The position numbers were made by a program, and so were the translations under genes. 64,000 nt of DNA. It comes from a virus (lineage: Duplodnaviria > Caudoviricetes). Shown here in pieces: positions 36,582-44,453 of the stretch. The notes below the pieces were generated by a model. It was not told where the DNA came from, made no database searches, and saw only the letters and a program-made list of their open reading frames with translations. Positions within the stretch are counted from its first letter, which is position 1. Each line of letters opens with the position of its first letter. The stretch is taken from positions 1-64,000 of IMG/VR virus record IMGVR_UViG_3300011774_000001, one strand, 5' to 3'.

Positions 36582-37055
36582 TTACTTGATCTTGGAGAAC
36601 ACCATGGAGATAAATTCCTCCAAGGATTTGGCGATGATTTGCCGTTTGGGTTTGCCGGTACGAAACAGGATGATTTGACCGCGACGCCCACCGGCTGAAG
36701 GGGCTTGGTCAATGCAGTAGTAATCTGCACCGTTGATCTTGGCAAACGGAATCCAACCAGGGTTCCACCAGCTGTCTTGTACACCGCTGTCTGGCTGAGC
36801 CTTCTTGTCATCCGTCTTGCCGTCTGTGTAGGTCTCGTTGAAACCTGCCCAGGTAGCCAGCACTTTCTGATGAGGCAGGAAAGTAATCTTGCCCGTCTCA
36901 GTCTTGATTGCCATGCCGTTGGATTGCTCCAGCACAGCGCGCAGGTCCTTAGGCATTTCAATCTTGGCCTTCTTCTCGTTCTCATCGGCCTTGGCCTTGT
37001 CGAGTTCTGGACCTTTCTTTACGCCCTTAGGCAGGGATGACAGGTTAGCGGCCAT
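36582..37055 (-). CDS. SMI1/KNR4 (SUKH superfamily) protein
   Basis: E...IEMPKDLRAVL..SNG; WWNPGWIPFA..NGADYYCID.AP...GRRGQII; IAKSLEEFI. Confidence 0.85.
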   Translation of the reverse strand: MAANLSSLPKGVKKGPELDKAKADENEKKAKIEMPKDLRAVLEQSNGMAIKTETGKITFLPHQKVLATWAGFNETYTDGKTDDKKAQPDSGVQDSWWNPGWIPFAKINGADYYCIDQAPSAGGRRGQIILFRTGKPKRQIIAKSLEEFISMVFSKIK

Positions 37056-37458: not shown

Positions 37459-37661
37459 CAGTCCAGGGTTATGCGCAGATGGTCGCATGTGAAACTCCGT
37501 AACTTGGCCGGGAACTCTTTCAAGCTCTCGTATCGTCTACGGGCTTGTTGTTGAGAACACAGATAAATGAAATCGCGTCGTTGTTGGGCGTTAAAAGATG
37601 AAGGCCCGTGCAGCATCGAGTAGTTCAGGGGTTTTAGAATCCCACCTACTTTGTTACTCAT
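37458..37661 (-). CDS. Small hypothetical protein
   Basis: Overlaps both neighbours in the coupled operon. Confidence 0.55.
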   Translation of the reverse strand: MSNKVGGILKPLNYSMLHGPSSFNAQQRRDFIYLCSQQQARRRYESLKEFPAKLRSFTCDHLRITLD

Positions 37662-38208
37662 CATCTCCAGCATCGGAGTCGGTAGCGTCAGTTGCATTGA
37701 GTGACTCCATTAACATGCGATCGATGGGGTCCATGGGACCGTACTCGGTAGGAGGCACCATCAAGAAATCAATGTCACTCGATGGTGTGGGTTCGGAGTG
37801 ATCAACGGTGCCCGTAGGAACTATCCGGCCCAAGTAGGGAACACCATCCTTAACGACATCAATGCGAGAGACTGGGTCAGGCATGAAATCACAGTTGCCC
37901 ATGCTCAGTGAATCGATACCGCCATCACTTGGCTCGATAATCTTGGTCGGGTAGAAGTGTTCTACGAACTCAAACTCCCGGTGACGCAGTTTAATCCATT
38001 CCAGCTGGGACCTGAAGTTAATGTCCTGGTCAAAGCCAGATATCGCAGCAGACACCATGAAGCTAACTGCCGAGATGTAAGAAGGGGGTTGATAGAGGGC
38101 GGTATCGTCCACACCCTCCTCAACAAGGCTCTGGGCCAACTTATCCAGCTGTTCCTGCTCGCGCTTACGATCTGCCTGACGCTGCAGGCGCTTTCTACGG
38201 TTGGCCAT
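37654..38208 (-). CDS. Hypothetical protein, basic N-terminus and acidic C-terminus
   Basis: AAGGT RBS; 184 aa. Confidence 0.7.
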   Translation of the reverse strand: MANRRKRLQRQADRKREQEQLDKLAQSLVEEGVDDTALYQPPSYISAVSFMVSAAISGFDQDINFRSQLEWIKLRHREFEFVEHFYPTKIIEPSDGGIDSLSMGNCDFMPDPVSRIDVVKDGVPYLGRIVPTGTVDHSEPTPSSDIDFLMVPPTEYGPMDPIDRMLMESLNATDATDSDAGDDE

Positions 38209-38222
38209 TTGCTTACCTTGAA

Positions 38223-38918
38223 TTAACGTGGTTTCCTGAATGATTGCTTGGATCTGTTGCGAATCACACTGCCCCGCATTTTCTTGGTGCGGTTCTGTCG
38301 CTTGCGATTGCGCAGGATGTCCAGCTTGACCATCTGAAGCAGGGTGTCGCAGATAAGGTCGTGAGCCAGCGCTTGACGCTCTGGGGACATCGCCACAACG
38401 TGTTGCTGCATCGTGCCAATGTCGAGCACGATATCGCCGGGCAATGGACCATGGGGACGATCAAGGCCTTCACCACCGTGCCAGTGTTCTGGAACCTTGA
38501 TACCGCGTAGGGGTTCTGGGATTTCGATAACCGATGGCCTTAGACCATCCCATGTTTCGGGACTGGATGTGAGGGCGAGGTATCGCGCCTCATCTTCTGG
38601 ATTATGCCAACCTACAATGTTGTCCCACACCCCGAAGGTCAGCACATCCACTTCCGGTTGACCAGTACCACTGACCAACCCAACTTCGGAAAGTACAGCG
38701 ACGTTCTGACCATTGTGCTGGGCCATGTCTACCGTGAACTGTTTACCATCAGGTAAGTTGATAGGTGTCTGCAGGAGTTCGGCTAAGCCTTCTGGAGGTT
38801 GGTAAAGATATCTGGCGATACCTTTGGGTTCTTCTGGCACAACGACCTCTTTGACAGGGTCACCCACCCTCTTGATCTCCAGAGCTTCCACATCGCACAA
38901 CTTTTTACCCTTTTCCAT
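38223..38918 (-). CDS. Hypothetical protein with very basic C-terminal tail
   Basis: 231-aa ORF coupled to upstream gene. Confidence 0.7.
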   Translation of the reverse strand: MEKGKKLCDVEALEIKRVGDPVKEVVVPEEPKGIARYLYQPPEGLAELLQTPINLPDGKQFTVDMAQHNGQNVAVLSEVGLVSGTGQPEVDVLTFGVWDNIVGWHNPEDEARYLALTSSPETWDGLRPSVIEIPEPLRGIKVPEHWHGGEGLDRPHGPLPGDIVLDIGTMQQHVVAMSPERQALAHDLICDTLLQMVKLDILRNRKRQNRTKKMRGSVIRNRSKQSFRKPR

Positions 38919-39369
38919 TATTCACATCCCGAATAGCTTGTTGAAGCGGTGAGAGGACTTGCCGGCGAGGACCTCGATAGTCAATGTGACCAATCGTACC
39001 CACATTGACGTAAGTCAATGGTCTGTCTAGGAAACGGTCTTGAACCACATCCACAGACCAGTCTCCGCCAATAGTCCGATACATGAACGGCTCGCCATCA
39101 CAGTAGTAGCCGAGGGTAAAGCCAGCATTCCATTGGGCTTTGGCATCACGCATTTCAACTACGCGATCCTTGTACGGGTCTGCCAACGGTCCTGCAAACA
39201 TCGGCTCATTGCTGAAGTTGGTGCGCCCGGTGTAGTAGAGGATGCGTTCGTTGGGGTCAGGCTCGATGACAAGACGAGCCGAGATACCCTTCCACTGGCC
39301 GATTACCCGCTCCACCAACCTACCATCCTCGTCAATAGCGGTGACCTTTGGTTTATCGCACCTGTTCAT
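38905..39369 (-). CDS. Hypothetical protein carrying an EF-Tu-like [10 protein letters not shown] motif
   Basis: ATGA coupling; motif at aa 121-130. Confidence 0.75.
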   Translation of the reverse strand: [154 protein letters not shown]

Positions 39370-39584
39370 TTTGGTACCTTGAATGTGATAACGTAGCCTG
39401 GGTCATGGGGGCGAGTAACCACCATGGTTCTTGTCAGGTAGGGACCACCTGTGGGTATGCCAATGGACAGGTAGTGGGCTTCACGAGCCTTGTACCATGC
39501 ATCCAGGGCCTCTGGTTTGGTCATCTCACCCTTCTCGTAGAGGCGATGCCAGCGGCTCTTCTTGAACTTTACAAAGGTACCCAT
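39366..39584 (-). CDS. Small hypothetical protein
   Basis: GGAAGG RBS; coupled to both neighbours. Confidence 0.6.
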   Translation of the reverse strand: MGTFVKFKKSRWHRLYEKGEMTKPEALDAWYKAREAHYLSIGIPTGGPYLTRTMVVTRPHDPGYVITFKVPK

Positions 39585-40528: not shown

Positions 40529-40568
40529 ATTCTAGCATAAAGGCCCACCCCGAAGGATGGGCGAATGA

Positions 40569-41586: not shown

Positions 41587-41946
41587 TCAACCACCCGGTC
41601 GGCTGAGTTGCTCATTGATCGCCCGCGCGTTGGCCCGACCCGCTTCACGATAGATGTGATCGATAACCTGCTGAACCTTCTGCTGACCGCGCTGCAACTC
41701 AGGGGTCATTGGATACAGGTTCTCGGCCTTGGTGCGGCGCAGCTTGTAGGACTGGAACATCGCAGGACCCTGGCCGTAGGACTGCAGGTTGCTGCAAACC
41801 ATGATGCTCAGGGTGTGGCTGCGGTTGGTCCCAACATAGCGAACACGCTTATCGGCGATCATATTCTGATCAGCATCGAAGTAGCACAGTTGCAGGTGGT
41901 CAGTCGGCACAATGGTGCCGAACACATTGATTCCGTGAAAAGCCAT
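41587..41946 (-). CDS. Hypothetical protein
   Basis: TGATG coupling with SbcC stop. Confidence 0.7.
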   Translation of the reverse strand: MAFHGINVFGTIVPTDHLQLCYFDADQNMIADKRVRYVGTNRSHTLSIMVCSNLQSYGQGPAMFQSYKLRRTKAENLYPMTPELQRGQQKVQQVIDHIYREAGRANARAINEQLSRPGG

Positions 41947-44453
41947 CAGCTGATCTCCACATGAATGTTCGCATCGACTGGACGCGTGATATTTCTGTCA
42001 TCCAATACCACGAACTCGGCTTGGTTGAATGAACCGTAGACCGACGAATAATGACTGACCATGAACAACTGACTGAAGCGACCTTGCTCCATCAGTGCCT
42101 GAATGTAACTCACCAGACGCTCACGGTGCTCATCGTCAAAGTCCTTACCGAACTCATCCGCCAGCAGTGGGTAATCGTGCAGCCCCGACAGCTCCATCAC
42201 CACCAACTTGAACACCCAGTCAATCATGGAGACTTGACCGGTTGACCCATCGGCTACATCGCCATCTGGGTTGGGTTCGTTGTTGACAATGATCGGCAAC
42301 TTTACATTGAGGGTGGCACCTTCTTCCAGCACAGCATCCAATTCCATCGGATACGTCCAGACCATCTCAATGTGTTCGTTGATCATGCCGCAGAAGTGAC
42401 GGATGAAGTCTTTGGTGATCTCAGCCACAATGCCGTGAGTAGGCGACAGGGCTTTGGCCAACAGCTTGTACGCATTGTACTTGCTCTCAACATCAATCAG
42501 CTCTTCACGAGTGTTCTCGTAGCGGGCTTGCAGGTCACGATAGCGCTGAGTGGTTTGATGTAGGACACCCAGACGCGTCATCACCTTGCCACGGACTTTA
42601 TCCAGATGCTCATCACGCAACGCATCTTCGACCTGAGTACGCAGTTGAGTGAACTGTTCACAGGCTGCAAACATCTCACCGAGCAACCCATCCAGTTTCT
42701 CCAGATGTTGGTACTCTTCAGACAGCTCAGCAATCTCAACGATGGCTTTGTTAATCGCTTCGTACTTGTCGTGCAGCTCACCTTCCAACAGGTCAGCACG
42801 CTGCAACAGGAACTTAGGATCACCGCTGTTCTTGATCAGCTCCAGACGCGATTTGAGATCGTTTAGTTCGGCCGTAATACGTTGGGCGTAAGCCGTATCC
42901 AAAAGTCGTCTGATGGTGTCTGCGAGCGCCACAGGGATCATGGCAGGGTTAGTCTTGACGTAACCTCGATCAGAGACCAGGTTCCAGAACTGCTCCAGCA
43001 CTTTACTGCTACTGCGGATGTTGGCCAACTCACCCAACTTACGGCTGTAGCCATCAAATTCATCGATGTGAACTTGCAGCTCTTCCATCTGACGAGTGGC
43101 TTCTTCCACCTTGCTGCGACGAGTAGCCAGCCCAGTCTCAGTATCGCGTACCAGATCAGCAGGCCAACCCGGCTTGAAGGTGAACTGACATTTAGGGCAG
43201 TCGGTGTCCGGTGTGTGGGTGGCATGTTCCAGTGTGGCCTCCATCTTGGAGATGAGGTTGTTCTGTTCAATGCACCACTGGCTCAGACGCTGGTGACGCT
43301 CTACCCGTTCGTTGTGCTGACCCCGTGTGTAGAGATTGTTCTCATTAGACGGGATTTGTACACACAGTTCAGCCAGTTGCTGCTGGATACCCTGAGCAAC
43401 CGTCAGCAGACCTTCTGGAGAGCTTTCTCCGCACTCATACAGCGCGCCTTGAGCCAAGATACCACTCAGCTCTTCTTCGATCTGAGAGATGCGTGTAGTG
43501 AGCTGTGAGGGGTCATCCAGAGATTCCCGTCCTACGTGCTTGATCAGCGATTGGATACCTTCCAGTGCTTTCTCATGGGTGTCGCATTCGCCCCGAGTCT
43601 GTAGCATGCGGTTACGCAGTTGGGTGATCTCTTGATCGACCTGTTCCTTAGTCTTGCCCCCGTACTGACCGCCCCGACGAATCACCGTCTCTGCCACAAT
43701 GGTTTGTGAGCGCTGATGGATGGTCTGGTAGGCTGTCTGCATGCGTTTAACCAACACGCTAGAGTCAGCTACCGACATACGGCCATTGAGGGCCTGATTG
43801 AGTTCCAGGCCCAATTGCTTGAGTTCTGTGACCTCGCTGTCGGTGTCCTTGTAGTCGTCCTCCAGAGAACGAATCTCATCGGCCATGTTGTGGGTGTTTT
43901 CCATGAGGTACTTCATGGTGCCTTGCAGGTCACGCGCTTTAACACGGAACTCTTCGAACAAACCCAACACGAAATCAAAGTCGGTGCCGGAGATACGCAT
44001 CATCCATTCACGACGTTTGGCAGGCGACATCTTAGACAGACGCACTTGACCTGTAAGGATGTCTGCGATCTCAGGGGTCAACCCCACGTACTTCTCAACC
44101 AACTCTTTCTGAGTGGCCTGAGTGTTGCCGTCGTTGAGTTGAACACCACTCATGGTAAAGGAGTGATGACCCGCTTTAACCTTATAGACGCTGACCAAAT
44201 GGAACGGTTGATCATTGTGGTCGAAGAAGTATTCGACACCGCCACCTGGATGGAATCGACTGCCGTTAGGTACAAGCCACAGGATCAATCGCAGCAAAGA
44301 ACTTTTACCCGCCCCGTTACTGCCCAGGATCACTTGTTCTTGTGAATGAGGGCTCCACTCAAAGCGTTGAATCTTGGCAAGGTCAAACGACTTATAGCCG
44401 GTGACAATCATTTTGGTAAGACGCATGGTCGGGCTTTCCGTATTCGTAGGCAT
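41946..44453 (-). CDS. sbcC: SbcC/Rad50-like SMC ATPase (phiKZ gp165-like)
   Basis: Walker A GSNGAGKS, long coiled coils, zinc hook CPKC, signature STGQ, Walker B LLADE, H-loop VSH. Confidence 0.92.
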   Translation of the reverse strand: MPTNTESPTMRLTKMIVTGYKSFDLAKIQRFEWSPHSQEQVILGSNGAGKSSLLRLILWLVPNGSRFHPGGGVEYFFDHNDQPFHLVSVYKVKAGHHSFTMSGVQLNDGNTQATQKELVEKYVGLTPEIADILTGQVRLSKMSPAKRREWMMRISGTDFDFVLGLFEEFRVKARDLQGTMKYLMENTHNMADEIRSLEDDYKDTDSEVTELKQLGLELNQALNGRMSVADSSVLVKRMQTAYQTIHQRSQTIVAETVIRRGGQYGGKTKEQVDQEITQLRNRMLQTRGECDTHEKALEGIQSLIKHVGRESLDDPSQLTTRISQIEEELSGILAQGALYECGESSPEGLLTVAQGIQQQLAELCVQIPSNENNLYTRGQHNERVERHQRLSQWCIEQNNLISKMEATLEHATHTPDTDCPKCQFTFKPGWPADLVRDTETGLATRRSKVEEATRQMEELQVHIDEFDGYSRKLGELANIRSSSKVLEQFWNLVSDRGYVKTNPAMIPVALADTIRRLLDTAYAQRITAELNDLKSRLELIKNSGDPKFLLQRADLLEGELHDKYEAINKAIVEIAELSEEYQHLEKLDGLLGEMFAACEQFTQLRTQVEDALRDEHLDKVRGKVMTRLGVLHQTTQRYRDLQARYENTREELIDVESKYNAYKLLAKALSPTHGIVAEITKDFIRHFCGMINEHIEMVWTYPMELDAVLEEGATLNVKLPIIVNNEPNPDGDVADGSTGQVSMIDWVFKLVVMELSGLHDYPLLADEFGKDFDDEHRERLVSYIQALMEQGRFSQLFMVSHYSSVYGSFNQAEFVVLDDRNITRPVDANIHVEIS

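Follow-up and report, generated by a model that had tools for sequence, protein, structure and literature searches.

Why should a small protein of a large phage carry the opening stretch of bacterial elongation factor Tu (EF-Tu), broken off within the P-loop, and what could such a stretch be for? The window analysed here comprises 64,000 nucleotides of a viral record of 230,984 bp (IMG/VR record IMGVR_UViG_3300011774_000001), and the gene that raises the question, hereafter the motif gene, encodes a protein of 154 amino acids. The initial annotation of this locus described the EF-Tu peptide as embedded in an unrelated protein that is not a GTPase, interpreted it as a decoy for EF-Tu-directed defences of the Lit or Doc type, and proposed to look for the motif in orthologues and in other non-GTPase phage proteins. 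As a whole, that interpretation is partly supported. In this study, we propose a different architecture: judged by its sequence, the conserved core of the protein looks like two disabled strand-loop-helix modules, the first resembling elongation factor G (EF-G) and the second EF-Tu. The features discussed below are collected in Table 1.

Table 1. Position of the motif gene, its modules and two genes of its surroundings in the window (stop codon included for the motif gene; res, residues of the 154-aa protein).
Feature	Position	Strand	Evidence
Motif gene, 154-aa protein	38905..39369	-	ORF list; ten relatives; dN/dS
EF-G-like module, res 28-58 (strand GIS, P-loop replaced by EPDPN, ERILYYTGR, conserved stretch)	39196..39288	-	Profile, hhalign, column identity
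Variable linker, res 59-117	39019..39195	-	Alignments; pN 0.36-0.42
EF-Tu-like module, res 118-131 (strand beta-1 and first half of the P-loop, no GK[ST])	38977..39018	-	Profile, alignment, pN/pS
Conserved C-terminal tail, res 132-154 (with G-P-R), predicted helix 141-150	38908..38976	-	Column identity, AF2
Upstream 72-aa ORF	39366..39584	-	ATGA overlap with the motif gene; homology to an orthologue N-terminus
SUKH-1/SMI1-KNR4 immunity-type protein	36582..37055	-	Pfam E 7e-17

The peptide quoted in the initial annotation is the C-terminal part of the 154-aa protein, and the ORF translation bears out its central statement: V121 to D130, encoded exactly by nt 38980-39009, agree with EF-Tu at nine of ten residues, and the GKT is absent. 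D130 is followed by YRGPRR, and the Walker-A Lys-Thr/Ser is missing; the protein shows the core N-V-G-T-I-G-H-x-D with one of the residues H/W/Y behind it, here Tyr, and RGP where GK[ST] could follow. The record of 230,984 bp carries this motif once. Given the genome's own amino-acid composition, a 9/10 match to the EF-Tu decapeptide would turn up by chance 3e-6 times over all six frames of the window. When the family profile was compared with the PDB, almost solely EF-Tu chains were retrieved, aligned over EF-Tu residues 6-23 (best E 8e-4); hhalign of the family against an alignment of EF-Tu N-termini built from fetched loci gave a P of 2e-8, and Smith-Waterman scores against EF-Tu (z 10-14) were reached by none of 2000 shuffles. 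The block reproduces, in the same order, residues ~6-22 of bacterial EF-Tu (tuf; PF00009), i.e., the N-terminal arm, strand beta-1 and the first half of G1/P-loop, and some orthologues are identical to EF-Tu at 12/14 residues. Unlike EF-Tu, the phage protein lacks GK[ST], the G2-G5 motifs and domains II and III, carries the piece near its C-terminus, and has Tyr in place of His22 (Trp or His in relatives). The EF-Tu likeness does not extend further downstream: the L..AI..V helix that the initial annotation saw behind the motif belongs to a tail without similarity to helix alpha-1 of EF-Tu (z about -1).

The remainder of the protein is indeed no GTPase, as there is no GTP_EFTU match, but it cannot be called unrelated, since it contains a second block that is EF-G-like. 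The peptide ERILYYTGR (nt 39223-39249) is identical at nine of nine positions to a bacterial EF-G (L148); by chance, such a match would occur 2e-10 times in a single protein as long as this one and 2e-7 times per window. Column identity reaches 0.81 over residues 28-58, compared to 0.42-0.45 in the variable parts. Once the EF-Tu motif is taken out, the family profile still finds EF-G in the PDB: 25 of 35 matches, the top ones included, are EF-G over residues 9-39, with E-values of 0.05-0.9 that are marginal singly, so that the case lies in the agreement of several tests. Among 9,854 open frames of a local set, EF-G also supplies the two highest-ranking matches of this motif-less profile outside the family, and the alignment of the profile with EF-G includes the preceding strand (GIS vs GIA/GIS) at nearly equal spacing. 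Pairwise scores against the EF-G N-terminus give z values of 6-7.7, and hhalign aligns residues 39-57 with EF-G 22-40 (P 3e-5). A single-sequence phmmer search with residues 25-75 against the PDB did not detect EF-G, the signal being too weak, and profiles and pairwise tests are needed to see it.

The corresponding part of EF-G (fusA; TIGR00484) spans residues ~9-40, from beta-1 through the P-loop and alpha-1 to the start of switch I. Both EF-G and the phage block show G-I-S, then 10-13 residues and then ERILYYTGR, with a one-residue gap in the alignment. The EF-G sequence AHIDAGKTT is replaced by RLV-x-EPDPN (RLVIEPDPN in the window protein), the rest of EF-G is missing, and the phage block drifts in distant superfamily members. 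In EF-G, the ERILYYTGR-type segment begins four residues past the Walker-A Lys, a position that is occupied by helix alpha-1 in P-loop NTPases; AF2 model 1 draws residues 44-49 of the phage protein as a strand at low confidence. Among viral contigs, the pattern [ES]R[IF]LYYTG occurs at 20 places, of which 11 lie in complete EF-G genes carried by large phages and two in this family. Two small non-GTPase phage ORFs (L151, L165) carry ERILYYTG alone, one of them directly at the N-terminus; copies of the EF-G segment may also travel alone.

Because the Walker-A Lys/Thr is gone in both pieces, the 154-aa protein is incapable of GTP binding and hydrolysis of the G-domain type. Neither module contains GxxxxGK[ST]. 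Searches of Pfam (E up to 0.1) and PHROGs found no domain in the protein, and no match to PF00009 GTP_EFTU, including its G3 (DxxG) and G4 (NKxD) motifs, was found in the whole viral record of 230,984 bp, while the same model detects GTP_EFTU in 14 of 14 control genomes. The window phage has thus neither an EF-G nor an EF-Tu gene of its own, and homologues of EF-Ts and bL12 were not found in it either. We also considered whether the EF-Tu-like block could be the G3 element (DxPGHxDF) of one degenerate G domain; this was rejected, as the block agrees with the EF-Tu G1 stretch at ten of 12 positions and with the G3 stretch at only five of 12.

Word-indexed and exhaustive searches gave ten relatives that are 40-51% identical overall, on contigs of 3.8 to 232 kb, five of which measure 169-232 kb. 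A phmmer search against 1.84 billion cluster representatives returned four representatives of the family and one spurious repeat protein (P0012), whereas blastn and tblastn of the window gene against the phage collection gave no match. The motif proves to be conserved among orthologues, a check that the initial annotation had asked for: the alignment of all 11 sequences shows no substitution at V121, V123, G, T, I, G, H128, D130 or Y131, and the constraint acts at the protein level. Between the window and L002, the wobble base differs at seven of ten unchanged motif codons. Nei-Gojobori estimates for the EF-Tu block are 0.12-0.14 for pN and 0.62-0.98 for pS; across both blocks pN is 0.09-0.14, compared to 0.36-0.58 elsewhere in the protein, at a pS of 0.6-0.98, and dN/dS of the whole motif gene is 0.14-0.26. 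Purifying selection is focused on the two copied segments, and because wobble positions are nearly saturated it operates on protein, not DNA.

The linker is missing or far shorter in some orthologues (P0008-P0010 have none), and column identity rises again to 0.89 over residues 139-152 of the tail, which is partly resembled in P0014 (ILPEL..DWNNG). Helix 141-150 of the tail is the sole moderately confident element of the AF2 models, which were built from shallow alignments and have a pLDDT of 47 for the window protein (11 sequences) and 50 for a 95-aa orthologue (17 sequences); values this low would fit a protein that folds on a partner. At its 5' end, the ATG of the motif gene overlaps the stop of the 72-aa ORF (ATGA), and the two are translationally coupled. 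Over its first 40 residues, this ORF shares 60% identity with the beginning of the 203-aa orthologue in L002 (E 1e-14), and in P0004 and P0006 the part corresponding to the 72-aa ORF forms an N-terminal extension, i.e., the two genes are fused.

The window belongs to a jumbo phage that is distantly phiKZ-like, its proteins being no more than 37% identical to those of isolates, and the motif gene is a real accessory gene of this phage. It lies in a tight minus-strand run of small, fast-evolving genes and is overall among the least conserved of them. The order is SbcC-like (41946..44453), 295-aa, 319-aa, 72-aa and motif gene (38905..39369, downstream of the SbcC-like gene), 231-aa, 184-aa, 79-aa, 147-aa and SUKH-1, and it is kept in two related contigs, with L001 lacking a counterpart of the 231-aa gene. 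SUKH-1 closes the run as its best-conserved small gene (81-87% identity to L001 and L002); when the motif gene and seven neighbours were searched against Pfam and PHROGs, this gene (36582..37055) was the sole match. A G+C-rich hairpin of eight pairs (GCCCATCC/GGGTGGGC; 40543..40562, minus strand) separates the 295-aa gene from the 319-aa gene, where the tightly packed run starts. The weaker EF-Tu echoes that had been suspected in two neighbouring genes fare less well than the motif itself. In the 231-aa gene, VLDIGTMQQHV corresponds to VMDADTMQQYV in the orthologue and is not conserved. In the 184-aa gene, the residues R-I-x-x-x-G-x-x-D-H-S of RIVPTGTVDHS are conserved in two orthologues, yet their EF-Tu likeness, which amounts to four or five residues, is indistinguishable from chance. 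The 184-aa protein (37654..38208, minus strand) has a basic N-terminus, MANRRKR, that is invariant in two orthologues, and its central part is deleted in L001.

Both blocks recur together beyond the immediate family. The superfamily pattern reads NE[RK][IMV]L-x-Y-[TAV]-G, 4-70 residues, NVGTIGH-x-D-[YWH], and the window protein has the two blocks in this order. Further members are P0013 (L068), P0014 (L017/L066), P0016 (L096) and the bridging P0017 and P0018, all of them first found through the EF-Tu pattern alone; their contigs measure 116-244 kb, except for P0017 with a sole contig of 3.3 kb. Among 17 superfamily sequences, L44, Y46, G48 and V-G-T-I-G-H-x-D are invariant, while the EF-G-like block drifts (ERVLRYTG, VRMLAYTG, EKILFYVG). 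On the strength of this shared two-block core, some seemingly unrelated carriers of the peptide are a single fast-evolving lineage.

A looser relationship may exist with culturable phages. A small ORF with the EF-Tu motif lies 1.6-2.6 kb downstream of an SbcC/SMC-like gene not only in the window, but also in Erwinia phiEaH2 (L078), in a 245-kb contig (L072) and in Salmonella phage SPN3US. Like the window protein, SPN3US gp192 and the corresponding proteins of Erwinia jumbo phages (phiEaH2, Asesino, ChrisDB, Huxley and others) are small non-GTPase ORFs with the EF-Tu strand motif, yet they have no EF-G-like block and no likeness to the window protein beyond the motif, and a family profile with the motif masked did not find L019, L025, L077 or L078. 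They are possible positional orthologues of the window gene. SPN3US gp192 (L167:6001-6210, plus strand) reads KHINVGTIGRVAF, in which the strand is kept and the GH-x-D half is lost. To our knowledge, no function has been reported for gp192 and its counterparts, some of which are labelled 'putative elongation factor Tu' or 'putative GTPase' in GenBank.

How widespread and how phage-specific are such copies? The degenerate DNA pattern for VGTIGH[VIM]D occurs at 96 places in viral contigs, 53 with HGKT and 43 without, so that the predicted recurrence of the motif in non-GTPase phage proteins is found, and above chance. The 53 cases with HGKT are full EF-Tu of huge phages, host tuf at contig ends and short N-terminal fragments. 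Most of the 43 others have N before the motif and H/W/Y after it, although neither flank is demanded by the search pattern, and the copies are placed N-terminally, internally or at the very C-terminal end of their proteins. In two cases, L030:3053-3634 and L073:3546-5219 (both minus strand), an EF-Tu N-terminus of ~30-50 residues with an altered P-loop precedes a YbcO nuclease domain and a large-terminase domain, respectively. The stricter pattern NVGTIGH-x-D-[YW] without GKT gives 12 viral matches, eight of them on contigs larger than 100 kb, and five matches in 596 Gb of prokaryote genomes, namely two tuf variants and three short frames; a Firmicute-type NIGTIGH-x-D without GKT is found in about six families. 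EF-Tu-type copies are far commoner in phage proteins than chance allows. A search for longer fused forms gave none, a result of little weight. Genes for complete EF-G and EF-Tu do occur on viral contigs of 104-620 kb (L152, L153, L156, L158, L160, L163, L166; L007, L009, L049 and others), and EF-G also on a 20-kb viral contig (L164).

What the copied segments do is best approached from where they lie in the parent proteins. In folded EF-Tu, both strand beta-1 and the inner P-loop half are buried, in keeping with the topology of G domains. The phage segment therefore cannot imitate the native EF-Tu surface; a partner would have to see nascent, unfolded or open states, or else the two segments would have to pack on each other. 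We favour, at a probability of roughly 45%, a fragment-type mimic in which the copied segments are, as we infer, the working parts and would contact a host or phage partner. Such a partner would normally meet the N-terminal segments of EF-G and EF-Tu before these are buried, in nascent, unfolded or nucleotide-free factors, and the motif gene would belong to an operon for host takeover or counter-defence. As a general principle, pieces of a protein can compete in a dominant-negative manner (Savinov, Fernandez and Fields, 2022; PMC9245647). As in that study, the phage blocks would allow a short piece alone to compete for native contacts; those fragments were engineered, whereas the phage ones are natural, derive from two proteins, are fused and are kept by selection, and their inhibitory role is putative. 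EF-Tu makes up 6-10% of cell protein (PMC13581612), and abundant proteins are the least susceptible to titration by fragments (PMC9245647). EF-Tu itself is an unlikely target because of this abundance, and its titration is also unlikely because a phage without a factor of its own needs that of the host; the mimic would rather be aimed at a partner scarcer than EF-Tu. A weak lead may be the Thr of the equivalent peptide in yeast mitochondrial EF-Tu, which was reported as AMPylated in a proteome-wide study (PMC13459536). In an improbable extension of the favoured reading, the protein would be a two-headed mimic that imitates the N-terminus of each elongation GTPase in its nascent or unfolded state, and it would titrate a low-abundance factor acting on these segments. 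Candidates would be a SelO/YdiU-type or Fic-type nucleotidyl-transferase and a defence sensor guarding elongation factors. Against mimicry stand the drift of the EF-G block in the superfamily, which is more in line with a structural element than with an exact copy, the loss of GH-x-D in the positional counterpart SPN3US gp192, and the absence of a phage EF-Tu, EF-Ts or bL12 with which a copy could pair.

That same drift, which admits substitutions seen in no EF-G, is the opening for the main rival. Captured starts of fusA and tufA would here serve as nothing but the hydrophobic core of a newly formed small domain (strand-helix-strand-helix) whose job is unrelated to elongation factors; it could, e.g., bind a phosphate-bearing small molecule at the loops after both strands. 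The loops do carry conserved polar residues (PDPNE; GH-x-D-Y-x-G-x-R), tandem strand-loop-helix units could form a half-Rossmann-like unit, and the tail is conserved as much as the motif, yet is not EF-Tu-like. A plain core strand, however, would rarely keep ten consecutive invariant residues identical to EF-Tu, inward- and outward-facing alike; the core peptide recurs without a second block at N-terminal, middle and C-terminal positions of other phage proteins, and AF2 gives no confident fold. We regard this exaptation as possible but doubtful, and as less probable than the fragment-type mimic. Considerably less can be said for a direct attack on the host factors, in which freshly synthesised EF-Tu and EF-G would take up the phage strands where their N-terminal segments belong, so that factors with a dead P-loop would arise and host translation would be damped. 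Both pieces do stem from that stretch of the G domain which is synthesised earliest and buried latest, and fragments that inhibit folding are documented for other proteins (PMC9245647); but the dependence of this phage on host factors and the abundance that protects EF-Tu from titration weigh here too, and an intramolecular strand should outcompete one in trans, so that we rate this mechanism as distinctly unlikely.

The decoy function suggested by the initial annotation loses its footing once the known sites are mapped. Defence systems repeatedly involve EF-Tu, as their target or as a cofactor, and the motif gene lies among likely counter-defence genes, including SUKH-1. A related case is Gol, a segment of the T4 gp23 capsid protein, which binds EF-Tu and is linked to the Lit protease; like the phage block, it is a short phage peptide tied to EF-Tu, and in a defence context. 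Gol, however, binds EF-Tu and is not a copy of it, and Lit cuts EF-Tu at Gly59/Ile60, outside the segment copied in the window protein. Doc phosphorylates Thr382. The caspase of type IV Thoeris cuts after R45 and R59 and needs only an Arg at P1 (bioRxiv 10.1101/2024.10.24.620036), and Avs7 holds EF-Tu via domains II-III (PMC13581612). Since all known sites lie outside EF-Tu residues 9-22, a decoy for Lit, Doc, the Thoeris caspase or Avs7 is unsupported, it would leave the EF-G-like half unexplained, and we consider it very improbable. A role of the DNA or RNA itself, through homology to host tuf or fusA serving recombination, integration or antisense pairing, could be imagined, as tuf is highly conserved and many viral contigs in our scans end in or beside it; but synonymous sites in the motif are near saturation between orthologues while the amino acids are unchanged, and the motif is always in frame within an ORF, by which such a role is refuted in practice. 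The many IMG/VR contigs with host-type tuf at or near their end (L108, L114, L118, L120-L122, L126, L132, L133, L135, L136, L141, L143, L144) suggest prophage calls bordering tuf. Small M-x-KEKFERTKP... ORFs on contigs of 35-60 kb sit within co-directional gene runs, as seen from ORF positions only, and an attP-type origin of these ORFs is weakened. Finally, short motifs can recur by chance or convergence when very many windows are scanned. The expected numbers given above for the EF-Tu and EF-G matches, the presence of two independent matches to equivalent regions of sister factors in one protein, and the conservation of both in all relatives make a resemblance without any link to elongation factors hardly credible.

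Phages copy host proteins or imitate nucleic acids. A natural protein, kept by selection, that is composed of short dead pieces from two translation factors is not described in the literature we searched: no paper on such proteins was found in the literature on these peptides and on EF-Tu in phage defence, and elongation factors are not mentioned in the work on ribosome-targeting proteins of jumbo phages (PMC10914614). The present result corrects the GenBank label 'putative elongation factor Tu' on the small ORFs of the gp192 type. Many phage proteins carry the EF-Tu core, among them those of culturable Salmonella and Erwinia jumbo phages, which makes the fragment-type mimic testable at the bench. 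If the segments bind, the partner recognises a part of EF-Tu or EF-G that is hidden in the folded factors, and this would point to events on nascent or unfolded factors, or to a new modifying enzyme or immune sensor. Should the two-headed mimic prove true, the first 40 residues of EF-G and EF-Tu would be the focus of a hitherto hidden level of control or immunity.
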